Source: Candidatus Buchananbacteria bacterium (lineage in GTDB: Bacteria > Patescibacteriota > Patescibacteriia > Buchananbacterales > UBA6539). From it: 64,000 nucleotides of DNA. Position 1 is the first letter of the stretch; the number at the start of each line of letters is the position of its first letter. Positions 601-55,899 of the stretch are shown in pieces. Both the position numbers and the translations under genes were made by a program. The stretch is taken from contig JBAYLH010000001.1 of the NCBI GenBank assembly GCA_041664165.1, forward strand, positions 9,469-73,468. The letters are read 5' to 3'. The notes beneath the pieces were generated by a model that worked only from the letters and a program-made list of their open reading frames with translations, was not told the DNA's origin and ran no database searches.

Positions 601-2310
601 TTAATTTAGAATTAATTTATAAATTTTAAAGGCTAATTGGTTATTTTTATTATTGACTGAATTCAAGCTGGCATTATTATTTTTGAATATGCTTTCCAAT
701 TTACTGGCGGCGGCTTGGTTAGCCGGCTCTAACCGGCCGGGATCAAAAACCAAATTATTGGCTCCCCTGATATAATAAAGATTTTTTACCCCGTAATTTT
801 TAAAAAATTCAAACCAGTTGGTATTAGGTATGGCTAAAGATAAATCGGCGGCCGAAACGAAATTAACGCCATAATAAACTGAAAACTGCCGAAAATACCA
901 AAGCGCGGAAAACCAATTCAGATTAGGGTCGTAGACAAAAAAATCTTTTCCCTGCAAATCCTTGGAAACATCAACTTTTAAGTCATCCAGACTGGCAATA
1001 GATTTGCGGCTTAAAGTATCCGGCTTGATAATTTTTCCCAAATAATCATTGAGCTGATTGAATCCCCCGTTTTCCCAGCGGCTGACCGAATAATATTTCC
1101 CGGCTTCGCCCAAGGGCTGGCTAAAAATATTGGTGTTTAGGCTGTAAAATATTTCAAAACCAAAAACGACGGCTAAAAACAAAAAATAAAATCCCTTTTT
1201 AAAAATTTCCAACGATCCGACCTGGTTGCCATTGATCAGCTCAAATGACTTGATCAATCCCAAGGCCAGAACTAAGGCGAAAAACGGATTAAGCAATGAA
1301 ACAAATCTGGCACTTGAGCCGATTAGGGAAAATTCGAGGCTGGCGAAAAGGATAACTAAGACTAAAAACAAATCCTTGGGTTCTTTATACCTGCTGACAA
1401 AATTAACCACCAAATAAAGAATCGAAGCAACAATTAAAATATAAATCGGCAAAGAATAATAACCGCTGAACTGCTGCCAAAAATCAAAAAATTGCTGCAA
1501 ATAATTGCCCGAACCGCCGCTCATGCCGGCCAGACCCGGCCAATCAGACATTTTCTGGCCAAGCAAAGTGGCAAACTGCAAATCAAAATGGCCGCGAGCC
1601 TGAAAAACTTTCAGGTTATAAAAAATTACCGGGGAAAAAATTAAAACCGCAATCGCAATGCTGGAGACAAAATATTTGCTGGCCAAAATTTTTCTTTGAG
1701 TCAAAAGCAGATAAAAAAATAGGACGGGAATCAGGAAAAAAACCGTGTACTTGGTTAATAAAGTCAGACCCAAAGAAATTCCGAACAAAATAAATTTTTT
1801 ATGGTCAACTAAACTGACAAAAAATAAATAGCCGGTCAATAAAATAAAAAATAAGGCAATCGGCTCCAAATAGCCGACCCGGCTGGCCCAGATATGATAG
1901 CTGAAAACGGTTAAAATCAAGCTGGAAATCCAGGCGACTTTTTGATTGTAAATTTGCCGCGCTAACAAATAAAGTAGGACAACCGAACCTAAACCGGCTA
2001 AAGCAAACGGCAATCGAGCCGTAAAAACCGATACCCCAAACAGGCTAAAAAATAAATGCTGGATAATAAAAACCAAAGGCGGCGCATCGTGAAAAGAAAG
2101 TTTTGACCACCAAGGAATCGTACCAAACCACTGAATCGGCGTTGTTTGCAGTTGCGAATCAGTATAATCCAAATAGCCGACCGCCCGAAAAGAATAAATG
2201 GCGTCATCATGCTGGATGTCGGCGCGGTTCAGGCCAAAAAATAACAGCCAAGCGGCCAAAACCACTATTGCCGGCAAAAAATATTTTGTTTTTTTAGTAA
2301 AAAAGCTCAT
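601..2310 (-). CDS. GT39-family (PMT/ArnT-like) integral membrane glycosyltransferase
   Basis: 569 aa with more than 10 predicted TM helices and a PMT_2/ArnT-like N-terminal loop architecture. Lies directly downstream of the giant Ser/Thr-rich secreted protein. Confidence 0.5.
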   Translation of the reverse strand: MSFFTKKTKYFLPAIVVLAAWLLFFGLNRADIQHDDAIYSFRAVGYLDYTDSQLQTTPIQWFGTIPWWSKLSFHDAPPLVFIIQHLFFSLFGVSVFTARLPFALAGLGSVVLLYLLARQIYNQKVAWISSLILTVFSYHIWASRVGYLEPIALFFILLTGYLFFVSLVDHKKFILFGISLGLTLLTKYTVFFLIPVLFFYLLLTQRKILASKYFVSSIAIAVLIFSPVIFYNLKVFQARGHFDLQFATLLGQKMSDWPGLAGMSGGSGNYLQQFFDFWQQFSGYYSLPIYILIVASILYLVVNFVSRYKEPKDLFLVLVILFASLEFSLIGSSARFVSLLNPFFALVLALGLIKSFELINGNQVGSLEIFKKGFYFLFLAVVFGFEIFYSLNTNIFSQPLGEAGKYYSVSRWENGGFNQLNDYLGKIIKPDTLSRKSIASLDDLKVDVSKDLQGKDFFVYDPNLNWFSALWYFRQFSVYYGVNFVSAADLSLAIPNTNWFEFFKNYGVKNLYYIRGANNLVFDPGRLEPANQAAASKLESIFKNNNASLNSVNNKNNQLAFKIYKLILN

Positions 2311-2425
2311 AGATTATTTATTTGAGCTAGTTTAATTTTAACAAAAAAAGTCATTTTTAGCAAGCGCTAAAAGTCCCCGCTTTTGGCAGGGACTTTTAGT
2401 TTTATGTGATCTTCAACTATTCCTA

Positions 2426-5400
2426 TTACTTACTGAAAGTAACCGCAGTTGAAGTAGCGTCAAGTTTGCTGGAAGCACCCTTGGCGACAACGTAGCCATT
2501 CATCCATTGTTCAGTACTGGAAGCAGTGGTGGATGAATTCTTTTGAACTGAGGTTCTCCAGTAATCCGTCCAGATAAAGCTGCTACCAAAGTAGTCAACC
2601 GCTAAACCGGTAAGCGCACTTTGATCAACCGTACCGCTGAATATGGTACCAATTGGAGCCGGATAAGCTGCAGGTAAGTTAGAATCACCTAATAACATGA
2701 TACTAACTGAACCACCGGTCGGATTTGAGGAAGCCGCACAGTTAACCGTGTTACAAACTAAATCACCTTTTAAGGTTAAGTAGTTTGAAGTTCCGGCGCC
2801 AATTTGTAAGGCTTGGAACTTGGTCGAATCGGTCGCACTGATGGCTGAACCATCGCTGGTCAAAGGAATGACAATGACTGAATCGCAGGTAGAACCGGCA
2901 TCGCAGGCAGCCGGAGCTGACCAGTCAACGCCGACATAGCTTAGCGAATCGTTTGTACCAAGCAAAGTGCCGTTTTGATCATACAATTTCCAGTTGGTGG
3001 TAGTAGCCGTACTGGTGGCGAAGGCAAAGGTAACTTGACCAATACCAATCGGGCCGGCCGAATCGGCACTGACTTTGAGCCGATATAATGGCGCGCCTGT
3101 TTGGTTAGTTAAGGTACCGCCCGCAACCTTGGAATTATCACCGCTGGTCGGCAATTCTTCGTTCGGGACAACGGTCGGAACGCTTCTGAATAAATACTGG
3201 TTCTTAGTAGTCGAACCGGTAATGGTAATAGAAGTAATCGTACCGCCTGATTGAGCGCCTTTGGCGGTAATATCACCAGCGGCGTTAATCTTTAATGACA
3301 AACCCTGGCCGGAAGCACCGCGTGAACCGATTTCGTAGTCGGAACCGGCGGTATCAACTTTAACCGTCAATAAGATACTGTTGTCTTTAGGAACAACAAT
3401 CGGACTGCCGGTAACGTCAATTAAGACGGTATCGCCAGTGCTGTCGGTTGAAGTTGGGGTTACTTCGGCTAGTTTGGTACTGCCGTTGTAAAGATAAACT
3501 TTGCTAACCTGGTCTAAACCACCGCTATTAAGGGCAGTTGAGGTCAGATAAAGTTTCTCAATTTTGACATCTTCATATTTAGCAAAAGCGCTGAATATGC
3601 CGAAAGTCAAACCGCTGGTGGAAGCCGGCATCAAACCTTCTTTAGGCGAAGTACTGTCTAAAGAAATGGTTAATTGACCGAGGTCAGTAAAGGTCATACC
3701 TTGACCATTACTCGGGCTGACAACAACAGTGGCTGTCAAATTGGTGGTACCACCTTTGGCCGTAACGTCTTCAGCACCGGTAATGGAAGCCATACCGACT
3801 TGCATTGTGCCGTTAGTCGCTGCGGTACTGATATCGCCTTTAACCGTTAAAGTCTTGCTTGTACCTTTGGTAATAACTAAAGGTGTTGAAAGCATCCAGG
3901 TAGCGGTGGCTTCATCATTATCAGTTGTTTTAGCCGCGGTATCGGAATCTGGATCATTGGTGGTAGCTAATTCAGTCGCACCGTCAAATAAACTCCAGTT
4001 AGATACTTCGGCCGGGTTGCAAGTGCTGTCGCAAGTAACCGCAGCCATGACTTTGGTAACTTTAACGTCTTCACCGCTGCCTTCCGCGCCCAAGATTAAA
4101 TTGGCGAAGGTAACAGCTTTAGAGCCGGCAACAATACTTTGGGCAATTGGTGAAGGTGAAGTTGAAAGCGACAATTGAGCTGATTTTATCGTCATGGTCG
4201 CTGAGCTCTGGGAACTGGCCGGGGTTGGAGTAACAGCTAAACCAGTGGTTGAGCCTTTGGCGGTTAAACCATTAGGGGTAATGCTGGCGACAATGGTGTC
4301 ATCAGCTTCCCAATCAGCGCTTAAGTCACCTTTAATGGTGTAGTAGTGCAAACCAACTGGAACCGTGATGGTGTCAGTTGAGGTTACACCGACAATATAG
4401 GTTCTGGTTGAATAACCAGCGCTATAAACAGTGTCATCAGGACCGGCAACAATACTGCCGTTTTCATCATAAACCGCAATATTGGTTAAGTCAGCTTCGG
4501 TAACGTTACCGACAGTACTGGCCGAAGAGGTAGTAATGGTAAAGACAATCGGCAATGAGGTGATTTCAGTTTCTTCACCCTTGGCCTCAAATTCGAATTT
4601 ACCTAAAACTGCCTGGTCTGAATCAGTCGCAACATTAGCGGCTGATAAAGTGGCCGGGCCGATTCTCAATGAACCGCGGTCAACGCTAGTAACCGGAGCG
4701 GTCCAGAATGGTTCGGCGTCGGCAGTGGCACCGTTGCCACCATCGGCGAGTTTAACGGCATAGCCATAAAGTTGGCCCATGCTGACGATATCGGATTCAT
4801 CGTTGACATCAAAGCGGATAGTTCTGGCTGAACCGCTGACAATGTCCAGTCTTAAATCAAACTGAACGGTTTTGCCTTTGGCAACCAAAATTGGGCTGGC
4901 GGATAAGTCAAAAGTGACCATCCCGCCGGTTACGGCCGCTACGGTGGCGACTTTGGCGTCATCAACTAATAAGCTTAAGTTGGCAACGTCGGCATCAGAA
5001 GCGGTTCCGCCTTGTTTAAAGCTAATTTGGCTAACTTTAAAGTCTTCAACGGAACTGGCAACTAATTTAAAGCCGGAAACGATGTAATTTGTCGTACCAA
5101 TCTTTTGCGTACTGGCCGACGGGTTGTTAGCGCCATCCGATAAGCTCAAAGCGCCAATCGTGATGGTACCATTGATATTTTGGTAATTACCGACAATCGG
5201 CAAAGTGCCAACAATGGCGGCAGTACCAACCAAGGTAACGGCTGATAAATTCAATGATGGAATTTCACCGGCGTAGGAAGCAGTGGCTCCCATGTTACCA
5301 GCTAAGTAAATTGACTTAGTGGTACCGGCGGCAACCGTGATGTTTTGGTTAAACACCGCTTGGTGTGACGAATTCAAGGTTTTGGTGTTGCCGATTCTGA

Positions 5401-8600: not shown

Positions 8601-8607
8601 GCCAAAA

Positions 8608-8640
8608 CGCAGAAGCTTATGCTCCTGCGTCTTTTTTTAT
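8608..8640 (+). terminator. Rho-independent terminator
   Basis: acgcag-aagcttatgctc-ctgcgt, then T7. Confidence 0.5.
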
Positions 8641-8653
8641 ATGAGAAAAATTT

Positions 8654-9814: not shown

Positions 9815-9823
9815 AAATTTAAA

Positions 9824-11391: not shown

Positions 11392-11392
11392 A

Positions 11393-11866: not shown

Positions 11867-11879
11867 ATAGCTTAAAAAA

Positions 11880-12281: not shown

Positions 12282-12290
12282 ATTAAGGCT

Positions 12291-12623: not shown

Positions 12624-12649
12624 ATTTTTGATTTTAATAATAATTATGA

Positions 12650-14089: not shown

Positions 14090-14168
14090 TACGAATTACA
14101 AATAAATACGAATATACAAATAGACTGCCCGAAATTCGTATATTCGTAACAATTCGTAATTTGTAGCT
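14090..14168. repeat. Palindromic intergenic repeat element (family 'tacgaatatacaaata...aaattcgtatattcgt')
   Basis: acgaatatac pairs with gtatattcgt. A near-identical copy lies at 45215-45265. Confidence 0.5.
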
Positions 14169-18165: not shown

Positions 18166-19020
18166 TTATTTGAATTCTTTCAGTAACTCGCTAATTTCAA
18201 CTTTTTTAACTTCCTGTTTGACTAAGGTTTGCTTGGCCAGCTGGGGCAGCTGCTGCTCATAAGTCGGCCGGCTTTCTTGATATAAAACGCCGATCGGCAA
18301 TTTTTCAGTTTCACCGGCTTTGGCATAGGCGACCGCTTTATCGTTTGGCTGATAATTGCTTTCTTCAAGTTTGTAAACTTTGGCCCGATATTGTTCCCGC
18401 ACGTCTTTGCCGTTAAAAATCACGCAAGGCTGTAAAACATCAACCAAAGAAAAACCCGGATGCGAGATGGCTTTTTTGAATAATTCCTTGAGATGGACAA
18501 CTTCATCGGAATACCCCTGAGCGACAAAAGTGGCGCCCAAAGTAATGGCGACTTGCAAGCCGTTAAACGGATATTCGATTAAACCATCGGGCGTCGATTT
18601 GGTTTTTTCGCCATGACCGGTCGTCGGCGAAGCTTGGCCGGTGGTTAAGCTATAGCGATGGTTATTATGAATAATGTAAGTAATATCGATATTACCGCGG
18701 CAAGTATGGATAAAATGGTTGCCGCCTTCGCCGTAGCCCCCGCCATCGCCGGAAATCGCAATGACTTTTAAGTCGTGATTGGCTAATTTAACCGCATAAG
18801 CAACGGGCAACGGCCGGCCGTGCAGGCTGTGAAAGCCGTAAACTCGATGCCAGTTGGCGCCATTGCCGCAGCAGCCGATATCAAAACTCATTACCACTTG
18901 ATGCGGTTCCAAACTTAATTCCGCCAGCGCCTGCCGCAAAGCCGTCCAGATGCCGAAGTTGCCGCAACCGACGCACCAGGTCGGCTTAATTTTTGTCATG
19001 AAATCAGTATCTTTTGCCAT
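18166..19020 (-). CDS. korB: 2-oxoacid:ferredoxin oxidoreductase beta subunit (TPP-binding)
   Basis: CVGCGNFGIWTALRQAL, the TPP-binding GDGG region, 284 aa. Confidence 0.75.
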   Translation of the reverse strand: MAKDTDFMTKIKPTWCVGCGNFGIWTALRQALAELSLEPHQVVMSFDIGCCGNGANWHRVYGFHSLHGRPLPVAYAVKLANHDLKVIAISGDGGGYGEGGNHFIHTCRGNIDITYIIHNNHRYSLTTGQASPTTGHGEKTKSTPDGLIEYPFNGLQVAITLGATFVAQGYSDEVVHLKELFKKAISHPGFSLVDVLQPCVIFNGKDVREQYRAKVYKLEESNYQPNDKAVAYAKAGETEKLPIGVLYQESRPTYEQQLPQLAKQTLVKQEVKKVEISELLKEFK

Positions 19021-19056
19021 ATTCCAAAATTTATAATTTTTAATTTATAATTTACT

Positions 19057-26860: not shown

Positions 26861-28699
26861 TTAGCGCGCAACCTTCACCGATGCCAAACTCCCGGCAATC
26901 GTCGGCTCGTTGGAGCAAGGATTGCATAGCGGCGGCTCGACACCGCTTGGTATCAGGATTGCCAGCACTTCGGTCAAGTTGGCGTCGTGGTAGTCAGTTT
27001 CGATGTCGCACAAAAACGTACTATCCGCGTTAATAGTCGTCAACGGCCGGTTCAAGTATGGCTTGATCCACCAAGACCCGTAAGCCTTGATGTAAACCGC
27101 TACCCGGCAATCAGCGGGGTTGACGCCACTCACCTTGCCTTGCATCAGGCTAGTACTGCCGGCTGGCGGCAAATAGGTGATTTCAATGCTCGGCACCGTT
27201 ATTATCGGCGGCCAGATTGGCACTGCCAACTGCCAGCCAAAGTCGCTGACCGTTACCACGGTTTCGCTGTTATTTTGCGGACCGTTGTTATCGCTCAACC
27301 ACAGGTTGAAGTGAAATGCCTCATTGCCCGGAACTGGAATGGCTTCCCGGTCATACACCCAGGAACGCACCAGTTTTTCGGCTGGCGGCAAATTCGCCAA
27401 GGTATAGCGGCCGTAATAGGTCCGAAATTCGACATAAGTCGACTGCCACACCAAATAGTGGGTAATGTCCGGCGCCGCGTCCGGCAGCGTAACGTAATAA
27501 CGCTGGACCATGCCCAGCCAAAACGGGTTGATGGCAAACTGGGCGTTATCCGAATCGTTTGCGTTCCCCCACCGGCTGAACTCGAAGTCGAACTCCTTGT
27601 GCTTGATCATTTTCTCCGCATCCGACCAGGTAAAAAGGCCGAAAGTCAGATTCGGATCAAGTAGGTCAACGCGGCCGTGAGTCGAAAAGCAGTAAGTACC
27701 GTAGCCCAAGGATTCTTCGAGAAAAACCTCGCTGCAGTACCAATTGCCGCCAAGTTGGCGCAGGGCCAAATTGATGCCCGAGGAGTCTATCCAGACGCTG
27801 TTTTCCGTGTCGGAGAAGAAGTTCTGGCCCGGATCAATCCGTTGTCCCTCGTCGCTTCGCTTGACCGTCCATGTTCGGCCGGCAAAAGGAATCCGGCGAA
27901 TCGGCAAAATCACTTTCTTGAGCACCGCCGTGACGGTTCGATTGGCCGTCATCGTGGTCGTCGTCGGATTGGCATGAATGTTTGCGACATTGCCAGTCCA
28001 GTAATCAAATTGCCAGCCTTCGGCCGGGTTCGCTTTAACCGTAACTACGGTTCCTTGGTTATAGCGAGCGCTTGACGGCACCACCTCGCCAGATCCGCTC
28101 GGACTAACCATCGTGGTCAGCAAATACGTTGTCGGATTGACCGTAACAAATACCGCCGTGATCGTCCGATTGGCCGTCATCGCCAGCGTCGTCGGATTGG
28201 TAGAAACGTCGGCAACCTCGCCGGTCCAATGGTCAAACTGCCAGCCAGCGGCTGGACTTGCCGTCAAGCTAATCTCTTGGCCGTAAGCAAAAGTGCCACT
28301 GGCCGGGTGGACTGAGCCGCCGTTCGAAGGAACCGCCGCCGTATTCAACTCAACCTCGGCCGGCGGTTCGGTGATGGTAACATTAACCATCTGCTGATCG
28401 ACAATGCCGATGGGGCCATTGAGCATCAGGAAAAAACTGCTCTTTCCAACTTGCCCCATCGCCCTAACCGACATCGTGTTGCCAGTGATACCAACCTGGA
28501 CATATTGGCTGTCAATACCAGTCACACTCCAGGTCAAAATCCGACCAGCGCCGTTTTGGATGTGACCACTCAAGTTGATAGTACTTTCGCCCATCGGCGT
28601 CAGCACTAAATCTGAAACAGGCGGAGAAATCTTGGTCGGATGAGGGCACCCCGCCAAAGCCAACATCACAACGATTACTACCAACATTTTCTTGTACAT
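26861..28699 (-). CDS. Lipoprotein with two InlB-B-repeat (Flg_new-like) domains and a GH16-like glycoside hydrolase domain; GC-rich (~58%) cassette v
   Basis: LALAGC lipobox; duplicated GWQFDHWTGEV / GWQFDYWTGNV segments; EFDFEF fits the GH16 ExDxxE catalytic pattern. Confidence 0.55.
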   Translation of the reverse strand: MYKKMLVVIVVMLALAGCPHPTKISPPVSDLVLTPMGESTINLSGHIQNGAGRILTWSVTGIDSQYVQVGITGNTMSVRAMGQVGKSSFFLMLNGPIGIVDQQMVNVTITEPPAEVELNTAAVPSNGGSVHPASGTFAYGQEISLTASPAAGWQFDHWTGEVADVSTNPTTLAMTANRTITAVFVTVNPTTYLLTTMVSPSGSGEVVPSSARYNQGTVVTVKANPAEGWQFDYWTGNVANIHANPTTTTMTANRTVTAVLKKVILPIRRIPFAGRTWTVKRSDEGQRIDPGQNFFSDTENSVWIDSSGINLALRQLGGNWYCSEVFLEESLGYGTYCFSTHGRVDLLDPNLTFGLFTWSDAEKMIKHKEFDFEFSRWGNANDSDNAQFAINPFWLGMVQRYYVTLPDAAPDITHYLVWQSTYVEFRTYYGRYTLANLPPAEKLVRSWVYDREAIPVPGNEAFHFNLWLSDNNGPQNNSETVVTVSDFGWQLAVPIWPPIITVPSIEITYLPPAGSTSLMQGKVSGVNPADCRVAVYIKAYGSWWIKPYLNRPLTTINADSTFLCDIETDYHDANLTEVLAILIPSGVEPPLCNPCSNEPTIAGSLASVKVAR

Positions 28700-36662: not shown

Positions 36663-36664
36663 AT

Positions 36665-38053
36665 TTACAATTCGTAATGGGCTTTGGCAATGGCTAGCTT
36701 TGTCTTTTGAGCCAGCGACTTTAAAGCCGGACTAATCTCAGACGAATATTTTACCCGCTGATTAACCGCGAATAAAGCCGGGCTGAATTTTTTGCACTCG
36801 GCTTGATAATGCTGATTTATTTTTTGCAAAGCCGGCAGTTTACAAACCAGCTTGCCTTTTTTAATAATCGGCATCAGCAATTTTTTACCGCTAATTTTTT
36901 CCTCATCCAGTCCGACGATATCTCTAAAATATTTTCCGTCCTTAGTTTGGCGAAAGACCTGCTTTTTCCCCGGATAAGATAATTTGCCTTCGGAAAGTTT
37001 CATTTTGGGAATTACGGCTGACCCGTCAATCATTTCGCTTAGCTTGCTGACAAAGCCTAATTTCGGCGCATCCGGCGAGGTGGTCAGCTCTTCCCCGCCC
37101 ACGACCACATCGGCAATCATGCCTTGTTTATACATCTTGGTAATTTTATATTCATCTAAGTTTGAGATTAAAATTATCTTAACTTCTTTCAAGCCCGCCT
37201 GATCTAATTTTTTTCTGGCAATTTTGCTTTGTTTGACCAAATCGCCGCTATCGAATTGAATCATATTCGGAAACGGTTTTTTTTGCTTCTTCAATTCTTT
37301 GGCGACTTTGATGAAAATAGCCAAACCTTTCATTGAATCATAAGTATCAAGTAGCCAAAGTCCCCGACCCCGGCAATATTTAGAAAAAACCCTTAAGGCC
37401 TGCTCTTCGGTGGCAAAAGAAGAAATAAAAGAATGAGTAACAGCGCCTTTTTCAACTTCCAAATTATTGCGCAAACCAAATATCGGCATAGCCGCCAGGT
37501 CAACCCCGACCGACTTAGCCGCTCTTAAAGCGATCGCGGAAGCTTGCGGGCCGTGGGCGCGGATAAAATTAACGCCGGTCGTTATTCCCGGTTTAACCGA
37601 ATGGACAAACCGCGACATTTTGGTAGTCAGAACCGAATAAGCCATCACCGCATTTAAAACATAGCGCTCAATAATCTGAGCTTCGATTAAAGGCGCACAG
37701 ATTCGCATAACTGGTTGGTAAGGAAAAAATAGTGAGCCTTCCGGCATCGCGTATAAATCGCCGGTAAACCGAAAATTACGGTAATATTCCATTACTTCAT
37801 CGGAAAAATTATAGCCTTTTTTCAGATATTCAAGCTGGGCTTGATCAAATTTCAAATTGAGTAAATAATCAACCACCGGCTCCAGCCCGGCAAAAACTAG
37901 ATAATTGCGGCAAGCCGGCATTTCGCGGACAAAAATATCATGAGTGCCCCAAAGATTCTGCATTCCTTCAGAAACCATCATTCCACCCGTGGCAATGAAC
38001 CCGCCGCTGGTAAAAAGCGACAATTCCTCTTGGGTAATAAATTCATTAAACAT
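36665..38053 (-). CDS. Nicotinate phosphoribosyltransferase-like protein (paralog B)
   Basis: AGLEPVVDYLLNLKF...FRFTGDLYAMPEGSLFFPYQPVMRI...EAQIIERYVLNAVMAYSVLTTKMSR and FDSGDL fit the NAPRTase family pattern. 462 aa. Confidence 0.55.
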   Translation of the reverse strand: MFNEFITQEELSLFTSGGFIATGGMMVSEGMQNLWGTHDIFVREMPACRNYLVFAGLEPVVDYLLNLKFDQAQLEYLKKGYNFSDEVMEYYRNFRFTGDLYAMPEGSLFFPYQPVMRICAPLIEAQIIERYVLNAVMAYSVLTTKMSRFVHSVKPGITTGVNFIRAHGPQASAIALRAAKSVGVDLAAMPIFGLRNNLEVEKGAVTHSFISSFATEEQALRVFSKYCRGRGLWLLDTYDSMKGLAIFIKVAKELKKQKKPFPNMIQFDSGDLVKQSKIARKKLDQAGLKEVKIILISNLDEYKITKMYKQGMIADVVVGGEELTTSPDAPKLGFVSKLSEMIDGSAVIPKMKLSEGKLSYPGKKQVFRQTKDGKYFRDIVGLDEEKISGKKLLMPIIKKGKLVCKLPALQKINQHYQAECKKFSPALFAVNQRVKYSSEISPALKSLAQKTKLAIAKAHYEL

Positions 38054-38067
38054 AATTAATTATTTAT

Positions 38068-39453
38068 TTATAAATCATAATGGACTTTATAAATCGTCTT
38101 TTTGGTTTTTTGAGTCAATTTGGCTAACTCCGGACTGATTTTTACCTGATAACTTGTTTTATGGCTAATGGAAAAAAGATTGCTGAAAAATTTTTTCCGC
38201 TCCTTTTCGTAGCGGCGGTTAATCTCTTCCGGCGTCGGCAAATTATACCTTAATTTTCCTTTTTCAATCATCGGCAAAAGCAGCCGCTGGCCTTTAATTT
38301 TTTCCGCTTCCAGTCCGACAATGTCTTTAGAATACCGGCCATTTTTAATCTGCCGAAATACCTGTTTTTTCCCAGGCAAAGAAACTTTACCGACTGACAA
38401 TTTCATTTTGGGAATCGGCTGGCCGTTTTTAATAACTTCGCTCAATTTATAAACCACGCTTAGCTTGGGCGCGTCGGGCGAAGTGGTCAATTCCTCGCCG
38501 GCAACATAATAATCAGCTGCTGCTCCCTGCTGATTCATTTTTTTAACCCGGTGTTCGTTCAAATTCGACAGTAACATTATTTTCACGTCTTTTAAATTCG
38601 TCCGGTCAAGCAATTTTCTGGCAACTTTGCTTTGCTTGACCAAATCGCCGCTGTCAAACAAAACATACGGCGGATAAAACTTTTTTTTCTTTTTTAATTC
38701 CGAAGCAACTTTGATAAAAATATCAAGGCCTTTTTTGGCGTCATAAGTATCAAGCAGCCAAAGCCCCTTGCCCCGGCAATATTTGGCATAAGTCCTCAAG
38801 GCCGCTTCTTCGGTCGGAAAAGAAGAAATATAAGCGTGCGTTGTCCCGCCGCTGTCTGGTTTTAATTTGTGTTTCTGGCTGATATAAGGGATACTTGCCA
38901 TTTTAGCCCCGACAATTTTAGCCGAACGCAGGGAAATATTTGAAGCCTCAATCCCTTGAGCTCGCGTGTAATTAAGGCCGCAGCTGACCTGACCGGCGGC
39001 GATGACAAACCGGGAAATTTTTGAGGCTAAAACCGTATAAACCATTACCCGATTGATAATAAATCTTTCAATCAGCTGGGCTTCGATAATCGGCGCCGAA
39101 ATTGTCATTACCGGCTCATTGGCAAAAAACAAACTCCCCTCCGGCATCGCCCAAACATTTCCCGAAAACCGCAGCTGTCGATAATATTTCATTACGGCCG
39201 GCGGAAAACCATAACTTTTTTTCAAATAGCTTAGCTGATCCTTGGTCAATTTATAATCAAGCAAATAATGAATAATGTTTTCCAGGCCGGAAAACACCAA
39301 ATAATTTCTATTTTCCGGCAAGTCGCGGACAAACACGTCGTAAGTTACCCATAAATCTTTCATTCCTTCCTGAAAATAAATCGACCCTAAAACAAAACAA
39401 GCGCCACTGGTATAAAAAGGCAAATCTTCTTTTTCAACGAATTCATCAAACAT
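38068..39453 (-). CDS. Nicotinate phosphoribosyltransferase-like protein (paralog A, tandem duplicate)
   Basis: Collinear with paralog B along the whole length (SGLENIIHYLLDYKL...FRFSGNVWAMPEGSLFFANEPVMTI...FDSGDL). 461 aa. Confidence 0.55.
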   Translation of the reverse strand: MFDEFVEKEDLPFYTSGACFVLGSIYFQEGMKDLWVTYDVFVRDLPENRNYLVFSGLENIIHYLLDYKLTKDQLSYLKKSYGFPPAVMKYYRQLRFSGNVWAMPEGSLFFANEPVMTISAPIIEAQLIERFIINRVMVYTVLASKISRFVIAAGQVSCGLNYTRAQGIEASNISLRSAKIVGAKMASIPYISQKHKLKPDSGGTTHAYISSFPTEEAALRTYAKYCRGKGLWLLDTYDAKKGLDIFIKVASELKKKKKFYPPYVLFDSGDLVKQSKVARKLLDRTNLKDVKIMLLSNLNEHRVKKMNQQGAAADYYVAGEELTTSPDAPKLSVVYKLSEVIKNGQPIPKMKLSVGKVSLPGKKQVFRQIKNGRYSKDIVGLEAEKIKGQRLLLPMIEKGKLRYNLPTPEEINRRYEKERKKFFSNLFSISHKTSYQVKISPELAKLTQKTKKTIYKVHYDL

Positions 39454-43776: not shown

Positions 43777-45207
43777 TTAATCGGCCATGGCGGTATCAAA
43801 GCCTTCTTCGGCCTCCACGCCTTTGGCTAAAGCAATATTGGCATCTTTTAAAGCCTTCTGGCTGGCCGGACTGGGCGCGCCCATCATTAAATCGCGGCTG
43901 TCGCCGGTTTTCGGAAAAACAATCACTTCGCGGATATTTAGTTCATTTTGTAAAATTGCCATAATCCGATCAATCCCCGACGCAATACCGCCATGCGGCG
44001 GGGCGCCAAAAGTAAAAGCTTCCAACATGTGGCCGAACCGAGCCTGGATTTCTTCTTCTTTCAACCCTAAAAGTTCAAAGACTTTTTGCTGGACTTCGCG
44101 CTGATGAATTCTGATTGAACCGCCAGAAATCTCAAAACCATTTAAAACCAAATCATAGCCATAAGCCCGCCATTTTCTCGGCTCGTCGGGATATTTTTGC
44201 ATATCTTCCGAGTTAGGCATGGTAAAAGGATGATGGCTGGCCACGAGTTTCTTTTCCGTTTCCGAATACTTAAACATCGGCGGATCAATTAACCACATAA
44301 AAGCCAATTCATTTGAATCTTCTTTATTTTTCCTTAAATCCGGCTTATCAGTACCATATTTTTCCAGACATTCGGCGTAAGTCAGCCGCGGGAAAGGTTT
44401 GGTCATTATTTTTTTATCCGGATACAGAGTTTCTACTAATTTGATCATCATCGGCTCAATTAACGCAAAAAGGTCTTCCTGGTCGACAAAACTCATTTCC
44501 AAATCAAGCTGGGTAAATTCCGCCTGGCGGTCGCCGCGGGTATCTTCATCGCGGAAACAGCGGGCAATCTGAAAATATTTTTCCACGCCGGCCACCATCA
44601 AAAGCTGCTTAAATTGCTGGGGCGACTGCGGTAAAACGTAAAACTGACCCGGCCAAAGCCGCGACGGGACTAAAAATTCTCGGGCGCCTTCCGGCGTGCC
44701 TTTGGTTAAAATCGGCGTTTCCACTTCCAAAAATCCCTCTTGGTCCAAATAATCACGAATAAATTTAACTACCCGGTGCCGCATCGTTAAATTATTTTTC
44801 ATTCTCTCGGTGCGCAAATCCAAATAACGGTATTTCAGCCTGATTTCTTCGTTAACTTGGCTTGAGTCTTTATCTAATTCAAATGGCGGCGTTTTGGCTT
44901 CGTTTAAAATTTCCAATTTTTCGCCGGTCATTTCCACGGTGCCGGTCGGAATCTTGTCATTAATCATTTTTTCCGGCCGTAAATTGATAGTACCTTCAAT
45001 GCAAATTACGAATTCCGACCGCAATGACATGGCTAAATTATGCGCCTCGGCGAATTTGGGCTCAAAAACCACCTGCAAAACCCCGCTTCGGTCGCGCAAA
45101 TCAATGAAAATTATCTTACCGTGGTCGCGCCGAGTATGAACCCAGCCGCAAATTCTGACCTTTTCTCCGGCCTTTTTAACCACCTCCGCAATTACTGTTT
45201 TTGTCAT
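43777..45207 (-). CDS. aspS: Aspartate--tRNA ligase, compact form (no GAD insertion domain)
   Basis: N-terminal OB fold, FRDEDTRGDRQAEFTQLDLEMSF motif 2, GGIASGIDRI motif 3. 476 aa. Confidence 0.8.
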   Translation of the reverse strand: MTKTVIAEVVKKAGEKVRICGWVHTRRDHGKIIFIDLRDRSGVLQVVFEPKFAEAHNLAMSLRSEFVICIEGTINLRPEKMINDKIPTGTVEMTGEKLEILNEAKTPPFELDKDSSQVNEEIRLKYRYLDLRTERMKNNLTMRHRVVKFIRDYLDQEGFLEVETPILTKGTPEGAREFLVPSRLWPGQFYVLPQSPQQFKQLLMVAGVEKYFQIARCFRDEDTRGDRQAEFTQLDLEMSFVDQEDLFALIEPMMIKLVETLYPDKKIMTKPFPRLTYAECLEKYGTDKPDLRKNKEDSNELAFMWLIDPPMFKYSETEKKLVASHHPFTMPNSEDMQKYPDEPRKWRAYGYDLVLNGFEISGGSIRIHQREVQQKVFELLGLKEEEIQARFGHMLEAFTFGAPPHGGIASGIDRIMAILQNELNIREVIVFPKTGDSRDLMMGAPSPASQKALKDANIALAKGVEAEEGFDTAMAD

Positions 45208-45214
45208 ATTTCTA

Positions 45215-45265
45215 CTAATTACGAATAAATACGAATATACAAATACCTAAATTCGTATATTCGTC
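45215..45265. repeat. Palindromic intergenic repeat element, second copy
   Basis: attacgaataaatacgaatatacaaatacctaaattcgtatattcgt. Confidence 0.5.
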
Positions 45266-45345
45266 CAAATTAGTACTTCGCAGTGAACAAAAATGTTATA
45301 AATTAACACTAATATCATACTATCTTTTGGCTTTTTTCGCAACTC

Positions 45346-45374
45346 TTGACAAAACGAAAAAAAGACGGTAGTAT
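45346..45374 (+). promoter_or_regulatory. Near-consensus promoter TTGACA-N17-TAGTAT of cassette iv
   Basis: ttgacaaaacgaaaaaaagacggtagtat. Confidence 0.5.
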
Positions 45375-45457
45375 AGAAATCTATTACTATGTTCCTTTGT
45401 CTCAAATCTGTGGTAAACGCAACCGATTAACTGCTGCCCCGTAAAGGAGGTGATAAC

Positions 45458-45709
45458 GTGGCTACTGCAATTGCGACACCCGACCAGATTCTCCGTGATC
45501 TACTCCAGGCCTGCCATGACGCCAGCGGACACTTGATTCTAGCGGCATTCGAAGAAGATAAGTTCAGAGCCTTAACCCTGGAGGAAGGAGCCCATCATGG
45601 AATCAAAGACGCACCCCAGCCCGACCAGCGCTGGAAAAACCAGGTCACTATGCCGGCCGGCGAGGTTTTTGAGATACGTACACCTCATCCTCTCGCATTG
45701 GCCGACTAA
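45458..45709 (+). CDS. Hypothetical 83-aa protein (GTG start) at the edge of the GC-rich pyr island
   Basis: RBS gtaaaggaggtgataacGTG; MATAIATPDQILRDLLQACHDASGHLILAAF...; followed by a terminator. Confidence 0.45.
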   Translation: MATAIATPDQILRDLLQACHDASGHLILAAFEEDKFRALTLEEGAHHGIKDAPQPDQRWKNQVTMPAGEVFEIRTPHPLALAD

Positions 45710-45730
45710 TAACACAGGCCCCCCCTCTCC

Positions 45731-45763
45731 GAGAGAACGCCAAAAACGTCCTCTCTTTTTTTT
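45731..45763 (+). terminator. Terminator (gagagaacg-ccaaaaa-cgtcctctc plus T8). An adjacent hairpin serves the convergent pyr operon
   Basis: Stem with one mismatch, then T8. The minus-strand hairpin accgcttctactcctgcagggaatgggagcggc plus T7 lies at 45766-45810. Confidence 0.45.
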
Positions 45764-45815
45764 ATAAAAAAAGCCGCTCCCATTCCCTGCAGGAGTAGAA
45801 GCGGTTTTTGGCTTT

Positions 45816-47459
45816 TCAAGCATGAATAGCCGAGACAATTTGCCCAGTACTGAAGCGATGCCGACAGTAAGCACAGTCGAAACTGGTCTTACCATCATAC
45901 GAATTGACATGAAGAAAACTTTCAGCTTCCGGGTCAATTCGGGTCACACAAGCTTCGTTGGGGCATATAAAGATCCTCGCAACTGCGGTTGGCGGACGAA
46001 ACATCAGCTTGCGATACAGACTTTCCTTCAATTCAATAACCCGCAAACTACCGACCAAGAGTGTCAGCGCCGCCAACACATCCTCTGACACAAACGCATC
46101 GGGCAAAAAGACAATATCCTTTCTACCCATTTCAGTTGACCTCTGGCGCTGAGCAATAATACTTGAGCTGCCAAGTCCTCCATGCACACCGGCACGGTTA
46201 ATAACGGCATCAACCATCAACCCAAAACCAGCCGTAATCCGATCAAGCACCATTCCCTTGTCTAAAGGATTAATAGCACGCTGTTCCGCTTGCCATCGTT
46301 CCTGCATTTTCTGCCAGTGGCTATGAATCTCCTCTGACGCCAAAACATCATAGGGAAACGATTTTGGAATGGTCAGCAAGTCCATATGCTGTTTTCGGTG
46401 CCCCCAACACATCTGGAAAACCGCCGTACGAGTTGGCGAACCCATTATTGCTTGTATATCCATAATAACCTGAGATTCGTTCCATATTGCCGGATCAATC
46501 ATCGGCCGCAAGACATCAAGCGGTTGAGCATCCATAATCAATGCCTCAGACTTATCAATAAATCGCCTATTAACCTGAATGGCCGAAAGAATAGCCTCAG
46601 CATCAGCGATAGTCATAACATTGCCCAACCGTTCGATTTGCGTTCGAATAGTATAGACAACATTATAAGCCACAGCATCGTCGAGCTTATCAGACACTGC
46701 AACGCGAAGACCCTGACATCGCCAAGCTTCAACCTGAAAAGAGTCAGGTGCAACCAACAGATATTGAATCTTGAAGTGCCGGCCTAAATCAAGCCAGCTG
46801 TTAGTTACCCGGCTATTACGCAAATCACCGACCAGTGCAATTTTCAGATTATCAAAGTGATTGGTAATAAACTCCGCCAAATCATCATCTGTGAGCTGTG
46901 TCAGACTAGATTCCAACCGCGCTACGCCAATTTCATTATTGGACGTCATTCCCAGGGCATGAGCAACAATCGTTACCATATCAAGCAGCACTTGCGTCGG
47001 ATGATTTTGCCGCCCGTCGCCGCCATTGATAATTGGCGTCTCCCGAAACCATTCAGGAAAACGACTAGATTCCCGCTCAAGATACAATGCCGCCTGCGTC
47101 GCATAACCTTCAACTGTTGTACGATAGCACATCATCCGATTCTGCTGTTGAATCGCCGTAATGGTTGCACGCGTTGGCGGTTCACCCTTCTTTAAGCTAC
47201 TAGTCTCTGGCGTAATCGGATTTGAACAACGAAAACCAGCCCGGACAGCGGCTTCTCTTAGAGTCCCAATCGTCCGCGAAGATGGTTCCTCAAACAAAAA
47301 TCCAACCTGAGGTACTAACCATCCGTCGCTGAATTCCAGTCGCAATTCGGGAGGTGGCAACTGATTACGGTAGTAGTAAGGCACCAAACGCAGCGCCCGC
47401 ACCACAACAGCGAGAATTTCATCTCGTGTCAATAAGTTTATTCCAATACAATGTTTCAT
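45816..47459 (-). CDS. pyrB: Aspartate carbamoyltransferase, fused catalytic (PyrB) and regulatory (PyrI) chains
   Basis: STRTR-like FEEPSSRTIGTL and HPTQ motifs in the N-terminal 300 aa. C-terminal EMGRKDIVFLPDAFVSEDVL...ICPNEACVTR...DCAYCRHRF matches the PyrI allosteric and zinc domains. Start taken at MKHCIGINLL with RBS gaaggagg; the track ORF extends to 47558. Confidence 0.8.
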   Translation of the reverse strand: MKHCIGINLLTRDEILAVVVRALRLVPYYYRNQLPPPELRLEFSDGWLVPQVGFLFEEPSSRTIGTLREAAVRAGFRCSNPITPETSSLKKGEPPTRATITAIQQQNRMMCYRTTVEGYATQAALYLERESSRFPEWFRETPIINGGDGRQNHPTQVLLDMVTIVAHALGMTSNNEIGVARLESSLTQLTDDDLAEFITNHFDNLKIALVGDLRNSRVTNSWLDLGRHFKIQYLLVAPDSFQVEAWRCQGLRVAVSDKLDDAVAYNVVYTIRTQIERLGNVMTIADAEAILSAIQVNRRFIDKSEALIMDAQPLDVLRPMIDPAIWNESQVIMDIQAIMGSPTRTAVFQMCWGHRKQHMDLLTIPKSFPYDVLASEEIHSHWQKMQERWQAEQRAINPLDKGMVLDRITAGFGLMVDAVINRAGVHGGLGSSSIIAQRQRSTEMGRKDIVFLPDAFVSEDVLAALTLLVGSLRVIELKESLYRKLMFRPPTAVARIFICPNEACVTRIDPEAESFLHVNSYDGKTSFDCAYCRHRFSTGQIVSAIHA

Positions 47460-47475
47460 AATTTCCCTACCTCCT

Positions 47476-48378
47476 TCATCTACATTCTGCCTTTTTCTGC
47501 CTGAACTCTTCCAAGCTACCAAACCCATTCTGCTCCAACCAACCTGCAATTCCCTCAATGATTTCTGCCATCACCAAGGGATTGCCAAAATTGGCTGTCC
47601 CGACTGCCACCGCGCTAGCGCCGGCCCAAAGAAACTCCAGGGCGTCGCTAGCCGAGGCAATACCACCCATGCCAATCACCGGGATTTTTACCGCCCGGCA
47701 AACTTCCCAAACCTTTCGCAGGGCTTGCGGCATTATCGCCGGACCCGACAAACCACCACTGATAATAACTTGACCCGTATTGGGATTAATGCGCATGGCA
47801 GTAAACGTGTTGACCGCCACAATCGCATTAGCTCCTTCTCGTTCGGCCGCTTTGGCAATGGCGGCAATGTCAGTTACGTTCGGTGTCAACTTGACGATCA
47901 AAGGCAGGCCAGTTGCCAACCTCGTAGCACGGACGATCTCAGCGGTGAGCTGAGGGTCAGTACCGATGATTGTGCCGCCGACATTGGGACAAGAGATATT
48001 AAGTTCAATGCCACTGATTCTGGTGTCCCCAAGACATTGCGCCAAATGCACGTATTCCTGTGGCGTCTTGCCGGCAATACTGACGATGACCGGCTGGCCA
48101 AAGGACAGCCAGACCGATAACTCGTCCGCCAAGAATCTATCAATACCAGGACCAGCTAAGCCAATCCAATTGATTAGACCGCTCGCAGTCTCACGAAGCC
48201 GTGGCGGCGGATTGCCCGGCCTTGGCTCAATGGTAACGCTTTTAGTCACCAAAGCTCCGGGTCGAAACCGACCCGCCTCAAGGAGAATTTTCTGGCTTTC
48301 AATCCCCCAAGTGCCCGAAGCCGGAACTACCGGATTATCCATCCTGATTCCAGCTAATCCCACAGTTAAATCAACCAT
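47476..48378 (-). CDS. pyrD: Dihydroorotate dehydrogenase 1B catalytic subunit
   Basis: MVDLTVGLAGIRMDNPVVPASG start with RBS ggaggtg; FMN-binding pattern. Confidence 0.85.
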   Translation of the reverse strand: MVDLTVGLAGIRMDNPVVPASGTWGIESQKILLEAGRFRPGALVTKSVTIEPRPGNPPPRLRETASGLINWIGLAGPGIDRFLADELSVWLSFGQPVIVSIAGKTPQEYVHLAQCLGDTRISGIELNISCPNVGGTIIGTDPQLTAEIVRATRLATGLPLIVKLTPNVTDIAAIAKAAEREGANAIVAVNTFTAMRINPNTGQVIISGGLSGPAIMPQALRKVWEVCRAVKIPVIGMGGIASASDALEFLWAGASAVAVGTANFGNPLVMAEIIEGIAGWLEQNGFGSLEEFRQKKAECR

Positions 48379-49222
48379 TCCAATCCACCTCCGAAGCGTC
48401 AAAAATCGGCCCATCTTCGCAGACGTAACGAGTTTCACCGCTAGTCATTTTGACAACGCAGCCTTTGCAAACGCCCAAGGCGCAACCCATCACCTCTTCC
48501 AGAAAAACTGAGCAGTCAATTCCTGCTGCCCGACAGATACCCGCAACTTCAGCCATCATCGGCTTCGGTCCGCAAGTGAACAGCTGGATTTTACTCCAAT
48601 CAGGCAGACTTTCGTCGCGAAAGATTTCCCGGCAGAGATCAACTGCCGTTTTTCCAGCTTCCTGCTGAGTCGCAAATTTCAGCTCGACTCCCAGTTTCCG
48701 GAAATCTTCCAGTCCAAAGACATACCGATTATCGCGAAAACCAGCCGCGACAATGATCCGAGCTTGGGTCTGTTTTTTCGCCCAAGCAACCGGATAGCCA
48801 AACGAAGCTAAGCCGCAGCCACCGCCTAAAAAAATCAGGCACTCCGCGTCTGGCTTAATTGCCATTGCCTGGCCGCAAGGACCAAGCAGTGAAACTTCCA
48901 CTCCCTCTTTCCACCGAGCATATCGCTCTGTGTTCGGACCGACTGTCCGAAAGACCAGCCGGATAGTCTGGCCGTCCGTTGAGTAAACTGTGAACGGCCG
49001 CCGCAAAACCGAAGTTTGACTGGCCGCCACGGTTACAAATTGGCCAGGCCTAACCAATTTGGCAATTCCCGGACAAAGCAGGTCGGCGGCATAGATGCCG
49101 TCGTTGACTCCTTTGTCGGTTCGGCCAGGTGCCAGCCGAATTAGCTCTTGGACTGTTGCTGTCGTCGCTACTATCATATCACTCCTCCTCCTAAAATAGG
49201 CTAAGTTGAGACAAAATGGCAC
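48371..49222 (-). CDS. pyrK: Dihydroorotate dehydrogenase electron-transfer subunit (FAD/2Fe-2S)
   Basis: FAD/NAD fold plus C-terminal CALGVCKGCVVK...YVCEDGP iron-sulfur cluster ligands; RBS aggaggaggag. Confidence 0.8.
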   Translation of the reverse strand: MPFCLNLAYFRRRSDMIVATTATVQELIRLAPGRTDKGVNDGIYAADLLCPGIAKLVRPGQFVTVAASQTSVLRRPFTVYSTDGQTIRLVFRTVGPNTERYARWKEGVEVSLLGPCGQAMAIKPDAECLIFLGGGCGLASFGYPVAWAKKQTQARIIVAAGFRDNRYVFGLEDFRKLGVELKFATQQEAGKTAVDLCREIFRDESLPDWSKIQLFTCGPKPMMAEVAGICRAAGIDCSVFLEEVMGCALGVCKGCVVKMTSGETRYVCEDGPIFDASEVDWNG

Positions 49223-49231
49223 AAAAAAATA

Positions 49232-49258
49232 ACGGCCCGCGCCGTTAATCTTTGGTTG
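49232..49258 (-). terminator. Terminator downstream of recO, upstream of the pyr operon
   Basis: Minus strand taacggc-gcgg-gccgtta plus T7. Confidence 0.4.
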
Positions 49259-49307
49259 TCAAATAACAACCTCCTTCAAGAAATATTATCAGAGTTTAGC
49301 ACATCAG

Positions 49308-49877
49308 TCAAGGCCGCATTCTTCCCATTTTGACCAAAAACTTTTCCGTTTGCAGCGGAAATTCCAGGTGCTGGTTCAAAAAAATCTCAAGCTTTTTCCG
49401 GTCACCGGCAATGTCAGCCGGCGGCGCCATGCCCAGGATTGACAAAAGTTTAATCACGAAGGCTTGTTTGATTACCGGCCAATCCTGATTCGCCAAAGAA
49501 TTGCCATTAATCACGGCTAAATATTTAACCAATAAAACAAAAATTTTAGGGTCCGGCTCGCCGGTTTTGGTCATTTTTTCTACCAATTCTAAAGCGTAGC
49601 TGGCTAAAATCGTTTTTTTGAAATCACCGGCAATGCCGGAAAACTTTTTAAAGATTTGCGCGCCGGCAACGTGATCATGATTTTTACCCAAAGCCACCAT
49701 TAAATCAACAACTGCCAGCTGTTGCAGATGCGAATTCAATTTGCTTTTGATTTTTTTTGTTCCCTTGCCTAGGGCGAAAATTTTTCCTTTTTTGTCCGTA
49801 TAAATACTAAAAAGCTGATCCGCTTCGCCGCGATCAGTCTTTTTCAAAATTATTCCTTTGACTTGATAAGTCGCCAT
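49308..49877 (-). CDS. recO: DNA repair protein RecO (short form)
   Basis: MATYQVKGIILKKTDRGEADQLFSIYTDKKGKIFALGKG is the N-terminal OB fold. Confidence 0.65.
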   Translation of the reverse strand: MATYQVKGIILKKTDRGEADQLFSIYTDKKGKIFALGKGTKKIKSKLNSHLQQLAVVDLMVALGKNHDHVAGAQIFKKFSGIAGDFKKTILASYALELVEKMTKTGEPDPKIFVLLVKYLAVINGNSLANQDWPVIKQAFVIKLLSILGMAPPADIAGDRKKLEIFLNQHLEFPLQTEKFLVKMGRMRP

Positions 49878-55566: not shown

Positions 55567-55587
55567 ATAAAAATTGAAATTAATAAT

Positions 55588-55773
55588 TTACCAGCTTGAT
55601 TTTCTTATTCCCGGAATTTGGCCGTTATTGGCTAATTCCCGAAAGCAAATTCGGCACAAGTTGAAGTCCCGCATATAACTGCGCGAGCGGCCGCACCGCC
55701 AACAGCGTCTAACAATTCGCGATGAATATTTCGGCCTTTTCTTTGATTTTGCAATTTTTGCTTCTGTTGCCAT
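55588..55773 (-). CDS. rpsN: 30S ribosomal protein S14 type Z (zinc-binding)
   Basis: 61 aa, CWRCGRSRSYMRDFNLCRICFRE. Confidence 0.85.
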   Translation of the reverse strand: MATEAKIAKSKKRPKYSSRIVRRCWRCGRSRSYMRDFNLCRICFRELANNGQIPGIRKSSW

Positions 55774-55899
55774 ATCCGGTAGTGATCCCCCACTTATTTT
55801 ACAAAAGTGAAGGACAAATATTTTTATTAATTATCTTTTAACTCTAGCCGGCGGTAATCTCTTAAATTATTAAGTGAGGGACTACTACCGGACATATTT

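Follow-up and report, generated by a model that had tools for sequence, protein, structure and literature searches.

The 64-kb stretch of DNA analysed here (the window) carries a compact pyrimidine operon, pyrK-pyrD-pyrBI, whose last gene encodes a fused aspartate carbamoyltransferase (ATCase). The pyr genes sit between recO (49877..49308) and aspS (45207..43777), just downstream of the ribosomal-protein/secY/adk/map cluster, and all of them lie closely packed on the minus strand. The NCBI entry that is identical to the window's PyrBI is titled 'ATCase regulatory subunit [Patescibacteria group bacterium]', in agreement with the host from the candidate phyla radiation (CPR) recognised in an earlier reading of this DNA, made without database searches (the sequence-only reading). 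The genes and their parts are:

48371..49177, minus strand: pyrK, 268 aa; ribosome-binding site (RBS) AGGAGGAGG
47476..48378, minus strand: pyrD, 300 aa; RBS GGAGG
45816..47459, minus strand: pyrBI, 547 aa; RBS GAAGGAGG
46404..47459, minus strand: PyrB (catalytic) part of pyrBI, aa 1-352, with carbamoyl-phosphate domain, helical insertion and aspartate domain
45816..46403, minus strand: linker (aa 353-395, about 45 aa) and PyrI (regulatory) part of pyrBI
45764..45802, minus strand: intrinsic terminator 3' of pyrBI, with a stem at 45795..45777 followed by a T run

The sequence-only reading had described an RBS of the AGGAGG type before all three genes and an 8-bp overlap between pyrK and pyrD on the minus strand. 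A GGAGG-type RBS is indeed present before each gene, and the coordinates of the open reading frames (ORFs) bear out the overlap, in which the pyrD start and the pyrK stop share ATGGTTGA with the pyrD ATG inside; judging by this arrangement, pyrK is translationally coupled to pyrD. The same reading had proposed a single PyrB-PyrI ORF of 547-580 aa, fused in frame, and had suggested its comparison with PyrB and PyrI hidden Markov models (HMMs). The fusion stood: the Pfam domains OTCace_N, OTCace, PyrI and PyrI_C follow one another in this order inside one ORF, and the fusion is no frameshift artefact because every relative carries it too. The upper length did not stand, and the TTG start giving a 580-aa product was rejected in favour of the ATG start (547 aa), as the homologues all open with M-K-x-C-I.

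A search of 5.8 billion proteins with PyrBI returned seven, namely the window's own and six homologues (41-55% identity), and all homologues with a named source come from Patescibacteria, including Magasanikbacteria and Buchananbacteria. A scan of genome contigs found just one GTDB representative with this tight PyrBI family. In all six lineages in which the locus could be read, Magasanikbacteria and Buchananbacteria among them, the slot has the same order, secY-adk-map-ruvX-recO-[pyrK-pyrD]-pyrBI-small ORF-aspS, while SecY is only 75-83% identical between these lineages. The bracketed pair is present in the window and in the related loci L003 and L007 and absent from L006/L013 (isolate STC_49), L008 and L009-12. 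Ordered by PyrBI identity (44-71% in pairwise comparison), the lineages fall in exactly the same sequence as by SecY, Adk, Map, RuvX, RecO, AspS and ScpA; the divergence rate of PyrBI resembles that of RecO, and PyrK and PyrD behave likewise. In a rough neighbour-joining (NJ) tree without support values, the PyrDs of the slot group with another CPR PyrD, apart from those of Firmicutes, Armatimonadota and others. The pyr genes would thus have been in the slot before these lineages split, and different lineages keep different subsets. These data argue that the operon was inherited vertically within one CPR/Patescibacteria group and fixed between recO and aspS; an ancient transfer into a CPR ancestor is possible.

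Two of the related loci deserve separate mention. In L018 (GCA_026395685.1, a more distant Parcubacterium), positions 5517-12635 hold pyrK-pyrD-pyrF and a 255-aa domainless protein in the recO-aspS slot, and an SRAP protein and a UMPH-1 pyrimidine 5'-nucleotidase are inserted between map and ruvX. The 255-aa gene was considered as a PyrBI remnant and rejected (hhalign probability 1%). In isolate STC_49 (L006/L013, JAQTYZ010000001.1), the start annotated for PyrBI (498 aa) is placed too far downstream: the tblastn match covers residues 1-541, and MKHCLGIDL..., a start in the same frame, lies upstream.

The residues of PyrBI were mapped to E. coli ATCase numbering by means of a 102-sequence alignment. 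F48, E50, S52, R54, T55, S80, K84, R105, H134-P135-T136-Q137, R167, R229, Q231, E233, R234 and Pro268 are retained, and H106 is replaced by Thr (H106T). The retained residues are listed as carbamoyl-phosphate and aspartate ligands in a review of the transcarbamylases (PMC4581275), and the ligand residues, the cis-proline and the zinc site are invariant over eight tight-family sequences at 41-55% identity. The carbamoyl-phosphate motif Fx[EKNDAQ]xSxRT is found as F-E-E-P-S-S-R-T (aa 56-63; S60, S61, R62 and T63 invariant in the family), HPxQ as HPTQ (aa 153-156; H, P and Q invariant), and the RxQxER motif of the 240s loop as R-T-Q-I-E-R. This last motif and R217 (R167 in E. coli) and K91 (K84), all for aspartate binding, are conserved across the family except in P0005. 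In the PyrI part (PF01948, 29.1 bits against a cut-off of 25; PF02748, 30.1 bits against 23.4), an allosteric domain at about aa 396-475 is followed by a zinc domain whose cysteines C499, C504, C529 and C532, reading CPNEAC...CAYC, are invariant in the tight family. HPTQ and the four cysteines had been picked out in the sequence-only reading.

The predicted fold points the same way. The AlphaFold2 model of PyrBI has a mean predicted local distance difference test score (pLDDT) of 82.9 and a predicted template-modelling score (pTM) of 0.80, and the top 50 Foldseek matches in the PDB are all ATCase catalytic chains (target-normalised TM 0.72-0.88), 1ml4 among them with a TM of 0.84. By nearest solved structure, the N-terminal part resembles archaeal ATCase catalytic chains and the C-terminal part the PyrI chains 1pg5_B and 1d09_B. 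A 35-aa insertion at about aa 168-203, comprising two helices, is confidently modelled and specific to the family. We conclude that PyrBI probably works like an ATCase with a built-in regulatory chain and is a divergent variant outside the described bifunctional family; substrate binding is likely, because the invariance of the ligand set across sequences of 41-55% identity would otherwise be hard to explain.

An exhaustive profile search retrieved 84 cluster representatives at E < 1e-30, almost all of them fused, and motif mapping together with an NJ tree separates this wider family into three layers. The first comprises fusions 480-530 aa long in which the STRT/HPTQ/HPLP motifs are canonical; those with a named source come from DPANN archaea (Pacearchaeota, Nanoarchaeota). 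The second (about 490-510 aa) includes a Buchananbacteria protein and has a variable third motif. The third is a CPR 'long-form' clade of 540-616 aa that bears the insertion and includes the window's tight SSRT/HPTQ/[HD]AQP family. By motif and tree position, the window's PyrBI is assigned to this CPR-restricted long-form clade of fused PyrBI. All ten fused representatives tested miss the cut-off of NF009916, the family of the Thermotoga-type enzyme (≤237 bits), and for this reason the CPR/DPANN fusions are a family apart from the Thermotoga type.

PyrD exceeds the NCBIfam equivalog cut-off (NF005574, 336 bits against 269), aligns over its full length with 1EP1_A and 5UE9_A (about 250 bits) and conserves the catalytic cysteine within ELNISCPNV, cysteine being the catalytic base of class 1 dihydroorotate dehydrogenase (DHODH) (PMC10395836). 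In PyrK, the Fe-S domain PF10418 is found at 49.6 bits with cysteines spaced C-x4-C-x2-C...C. The best reading of the pair, from these matches, is a class 1B DHODH in which PyrD would bind flavin mononucleotide (FMN), and PyrK flavin adenine dinucleotide (FAD) and a 2Fe-2S cluster.

Between recO and pyrK lies a short leader with three elements:

49283..49311, minus strand: pyr operon promoter, TTGACT and TAATAT separated by 17 nt, plus an upstream TG
49254..49274, minus strand: invariant leader element GGAGGTTGTTATTTGACAACC, arranged GGAGGTTGT-nnn-TTGACAACC
49223..49247, minus strand: intrinsic terminator of the leader and candidate attenuator, TAACGGC-GCGG-GCCGTTA followed by T7

The -35 hexamer of the promoter overlaps the recO stop codon; then come 7-8 nt, the invariant element, a spacer of 8-12 nt, the terminator and, after about 45 nt, the start of pyrK. 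The leader totals only about 55 nt. Among the intergenic regions around the operon, it alone has matches in most of the related lineages (7/11), and the invariant element occurs once in the window and once per related locus. A pattern scan of metagenomes gave 46 matches, of which 34 were chance or unrelated; it added six lineages, in all of which the element follows recO and precedes pyrK or a pyrBI-like gene. In all 12 lineages the same -35/17 nt/-10 geometry is found 7-8 nt upstream of the element, and all 12 leaders fold into two hairpins (z-scores -1.9 to -4.8), the first of which, P1 (GGTTGT/ACAACC), is present in every one. The element may equally be read as a DNA palindrome at about +1..+25. 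The terminator stems vary yet still pair (CCCGA/TCGGG in L008, CCCG/CGGG in L049); MAFFT misregistered the stems of L008, and pairing was therefore checked by hand and by single-sequence folding. Searches of Rfam gave no match to the leader, and no antiterminator pairing was identified within it.

In the 45 nt from the terminator to the pyrK RBS, nothing resembling a promoter was found, so transcription of the operon must cross the terminator; transcription attenuation is therefore the most likely control of the pyr genes. An SD-like (Shine-Dalgarno) GGAGG in the invariant element is followed 7 nt on by a TTG (49262..49260) that opens a mini-ORF, M-T-T-K-D-stop (49262..49245). Of the 12 leaders, seven have a mini-ORF that stops 0-8 nt short of the terminator stem and four have one that continues through the terminator; the remaining leader has none. 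By analogy with the enterobacterial pyrBI and pyrE leaders, it would be compatible with attenuation coupled to translation, a view that we hold loosely. Gene regulation in this phylum is barely characterised, and we regard the leader as a candidate new cis-regulatory element.

The above findings fit together as follows. The 547-aa product would be a single-chain ATCase, with an archaeal-like catalytic chain joined by the linker to a PyrI-type zinc regulatory chain, that converts carbamoyl phosphate and aspartate to N-carbamoyl-aspartate and presumably forms a nucleotide-regulated oligomer, as the Thermotoga enzyme suggests by analogy. PyrD and PyrK would pass electrons from dihydroorotate to NAD+. 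Transcription would start at the conserved promoter after recO and proceed, subject to attenuation, past the promoter-proximal hairpin and the terminator. The operon would thus supply steps 2 and 4 of uridine monophosphate (UMP) synthesis, steps 1, 3, 5 and 6 being encoded elsewhere or bypassed by exchange with a host. We put the probability of this explanation as a whole, vertical inheritance included, at about 0.6.

Several observations weigh against it. The 64-kb window holds no pyr gene beyond these three, and carAB, pyrC, pyrE and pyrF were not found in it, as the sequence-only reading had said of pyrC, pyrE and pyrF nearby. CPR organisms are generally without complete nucleotide synthesis (PMC8407418); in favour of the explanation, the de novo pyrimidine pathway of one Parcubacterium is described as nearly complete (PMC5220378), which makes scattered pyr genes elsewhere in the genome plausible. 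Our literature search found no paper on a CPR ATCase or DHODH. PyrBI falls far below the ATCase equivalog cut-offs (NF002032, 119.5 bits against 263; TIGR00670, 116.7 against 236.95), and the PyrI equivalog TIGR00240 gives it 53.5 bits, under a cut-off of 148.55. It has SSRTI where STRTR is expected (Thr53 to Ser, Arg56 to Ile), the motif that the sequence-only reading had called STRTR-like. The HxLP motif, Leu followed by cis-Pro, is common to all known transcarbamylases (PMC4581275); PyrBI has DAQP in its place, with His265 and Leu267 replaced and the cis-proline alone kept. Most relatives have HAQP at this site, and the intermediates HPQP, HAQP and HALP are found in related CPR proteins. 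PyrK scores 102-120 bits against NCBIfam PyrK cut-offs of 219-314 and is nearer to an NfnA-type structure (4ylf, 86 bits) than to the PyrK of Lactococcus lactis (1ep3_B, 62 bits); the earlier assignment to class 1B thus holds firmly for PyrD and less so for PyrK. In the leader, P1 never varies and shows no covariation, and because of this invariance an RNA hairpin and a DNA operator (GGTTGT-N6-ACAACC) are not separable. Finally, some lineages keep pyrBI without pyrK-pyrD, and in others pyrK-pyrD are accompanied by a pyrBI-like gene whose product lacks Arg54, a retention pattern that fits pathway decay or a changed role.

The alternative that survives best, unlikely as we judge it, is that the locus is a decaying remnant or that the PyrBI-like protein is a repurposed pseudoenzyme, mainly non-catalytic, which senses nucleotides or serves as a scaffold or regulator. 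The subsets found in the slot do vary: pyrK-pyrD-pyrBI, pyrBI alone, or pyrK-pyrD-pyrF with an unassigned gene. Within the long-form clade, a sister subclade of 570-616 aa (P0154, P0163, P0166, P0168-P0170, P0174, P0202, P0210; L040) has STGT for STRT, and so has lost Arg54, has a degenerate HPxQ and in most members lacks the zinc cysteines. Arg54 is 'critical for catalysis' according to the title of PDB entry 1ACM, and these proteins are probable pseudoenzymes on their motifs. In L040 the STGT-type gene (leader +1881..3119) still stands behind pyrK-pyrD and the same conserved leader. The window protein itself has an altered HxLP and low HMM scores, but all its ATCase ligand residues, its cis-proline and its zinc site belong to the invariant set described above. 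An inactive DHOase (dihydroorotase) partner is known from some ATCases and offers a comparable case.

In its broadest form, which we find similarly doubtful, this alternative holds that CPR bacteria have their own lineage-specific radiation of fused PyrBI-like proteins, fixed next to the ribosomal-protein cluster under a hitherto undescribed invariant leader, in which the ATCase scaffold is being repurposed. The protein could then be an enzyme of catabolism or exchange that uses pyrimidine intermediates from the host, or a non-catalytic sensor of nucleotides or carbamoyl phosphate; the sensor would explain why the gene is kept after loss of Arg54, HPxQ, the zinc site or pyrK-pyrD. The window protein, with its altered HxLP and intact ligands, would be an intermediate and no ordinary biosynthetic ATCase.

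We consider a catabolic use improbable, a step below the pseudoenzyme in our ranking. The organism would scavenge orotate, dihydroorotate or carbamoyl-aspartate and use the enzymes in the reverse direction, by NADH-dependent reduction of orotate and phosphorolysis of carbamoyl-aspartate to carbamoyl phosphate, with ATP gained through carbamate kinase. A catabolic ATCase has been raised as an unproven possibility (PMC4581275), class 1B is the type of DHODH in the orotate fermenter Clostridium oroticum (PMC10395836), the host is fermentative with few biosynthetic pathways (PMC5220378; PMC8407418), and a 2-oxoacid:ferredoxin oxidoreductase is encoded in the window. On the other side, neither dihydroorotase nor carbamate kinase was found in the 64-kb window, and a regulatory domain of the PyrI type usually goes with feedback control of biosynthesis.

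The base composition of the locus had led the sequence-only reading to describe an acquired island of about 55% GC. The segment 45340..49260 is the top-ranked 3.9-kb stretch of the window; its GC is 0.501, not about 0.55, against a mean of 0.430 (sd 0.025). The GC at third codon positions (GC3) within the pyr region is raised only in pyrK (0.517), pyrD (0.538) and the small ORF, against a background of about 0.44. Several core genes reach values similar to those of pyrK and pyrD (rplB 0.528, tpiA 0.536). For pyrBI the GC3 equals the background (0.445), the excess of this gene lying in codon positions 1 and 2. By best hits, PyrD is 49-56% identical to CPR and many other phyla alike, and so points to no particular donor. 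A recent insertion of GC-rich DNA from outside the CPR between recO and aspS is hardly credible and was rejected: the GC, the GC3 of pyrK and pyrD and a PyrD as similar to Firmicutes, Armatimonadota and Poribacteria (49-55%) as to CPR speak for it, but the same genes occupy the same slot in six CPR lineages with congruent divergence, PyrBI has no close non-CPR relative, the CPR PyrDs group together, the GC3 of pyrBI is that of the background, and no integrase, tRNA target or direct repeats were found at the borders. An outcome of this kind had been named in the sequence-only reading itself as one that would refute the island. Horizontal transfer was a tempting conclusion to draw from GC content, and the present analysis corrects it as wrong.

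Two further observations concern composition. In the related lineages L003, L007, L006, L008 and L009, the GC3 of pyrBI, and of pyrK and pyrD where present, is 0.1-0.2 above that of syntenic core genes; this is puzzling, because amelioration should have erased a donor signature under vertical descent. Within the window, the most compositionally deviant gene is a lipoprotein gene at 26861..28699 (minus strand, 612 aa, InlB B-repeat (Flg_new_2) domains; GC 0.543, GC3 0.657), and a foreign origin is more plausible for it than for the pyr genes.

Downstream of pyrBI, the sequence-only reading had noted a convergent small ORF with a promoter near 45346 and a palindrome beside it. Both are present:

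45458..45709, plus strand: 83-aa gene convergent with pyrBI; GTG start; RBS AAAGGAGG
45346..45374, plus strand: promoter-like site of the 83-aa gene, TTGACA-17-TAGTAT
45231..45264, no strand assigned: palindrome with a 14-bp stem, 24 nt upstream of the aspS start

By tblastn, each of the six tight-family lineages has a homologue of the 83-aa gene directly after pyrBI, and no homologue is present where that family is absent (L018, L033); the 83-aa family has only six members among the 5.8 billion proteins. The protein has no Pfam match, and Foldseek matches to its AlphaFold2 model (pLDDT 74) were not significant, with similarity to a glyoxalase-like beta-alpha-beta-beta-beta module only. The palindrome marks the boundary and probably lies outside the operon. 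A second copy at 14108..14147 (ACGAATATACAAAT ... ATTCGTATATTCGT) lies 25 nt upstream of a PilT/T2SSE-like ATPase gene at 14083; both copies precede the starts of minus-strand genes (14083; aspS, 45207) by 24-25 nt, and a role as a common operator, as a leader hairpin or as a bidirectional terminator is conceivable for them.

Elsewhere in the window, positions 35223-39453 hold two tandem paralogues resembling nicotinate phosphoribosyltransferase (NAPRTase) beside a phosphoenolpyruvate (PEP)-utilising enzyme and a LOG-family protein, and the two subunits of the 2-oxoacid:ferredoxin oxidoreductase are encoded at 18166-20826; the paralogues and the oxidoreductase form the context of a fermentative, salvage-dependent organism. 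A 1266-aa ORF at 2426-6226 (minus strand) has no Pfam match and a raised GC at second codon positions (0.506). A gap in the ribosomal-protein operon at 55567-55899 shows DNA-level conservation across related loci and probably holds a short gene missed by the 120-aa ORF filter, its position being that of the 61-aa rpsN (S14) of L003 and L006.

The general view is that CPR bacteria obtain their nucleotides from hosts. An inherited and apparently regulated capacity for two non-adjacent steps of UMP synthesis across a CPR group would be maintained rather than accidental, and would suggest either that pathway intermediates are exchanged or that further genes lie scattered over the rest of the genome. 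The fused, motif-altered ATCase family, some of whose relatives have lost the catalytic arginine, would also provide a natural test of how far changes in HxLP are tolerated. New here, from comparison of the loci, are the conserved promoter-hairpin-terminator leader in 12 lineages and the conserved 83-aa convergent gene.

Attenuators of pyrimidine operons are known from the pyrBI and pyrE leaders of E. coli and from the PyrR-regulated and pyrG leaders of B. subtilis. The leader described here differs from them in having no Rfam match, no PyrR-type binding loop and a length of only about 55 nt; it is like them in its promoter-proximal intrinsic terminator before pyr genes and in a short mini-ORF with SD and start codon, present in 11 of the 12 leaders. 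With the class 1B DHODHs of Lactococcus lactis (1EP1-3) and Bacillus, the window pair shares a full-length PyrD match, the catalytic cysteine and overlapping pyrK-pyrD genes, whereas its PyrK is divergent from that of L. lactis and below the NCBIfam cut-offs.

Among ATCases, a fused PyrBI is known from Thermotoga maritima (Chen et al. 1998, as cited in PMC4581275). The sequence-only reading had pointed to Thermotoga-like lineages, and the analogy is valid: the Thermotoga-type protein (NF009916/PRK13376) has the same collinear order of a catalytic N-terminal and a PyrI C-terminal part with a four-cysteine zinc domain. Membership was rejected on the NF009916 scores of the window protein (82.1 bits against a cut-off of 800) and of the ten related fusions; the window protein differs further by the 35-aa insertion between domains, SSRTI for STRTR and DAQP for HPLP. 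The archaeal class B ATCases (Pyrococcus abyssi 1ML4, Methanocaldococcus jannaschii 3E2P, Sulfolobus acidocaldarius 1PG5) have separate PyrB and PyrI chains, a canonical HPLP, no insertion and about 22-26% identity, yet they give the best sequence and fold matches and carry the same ligand residues. The fused PyrBI proteins of 480-530 aa found in DPANN archaea and in other CPR (for example Pacearchaeota MEM4703439.1 and Buchananbacteria PIS05427.1) mostly keep STRT/HPTQ/HPLP and have no insertion, and several reach or come near the ATCase equivalog score; they show the same order of parts, and the exhaustive search and NJ tree place them as the nearest outgroups of the window's PyrBI.

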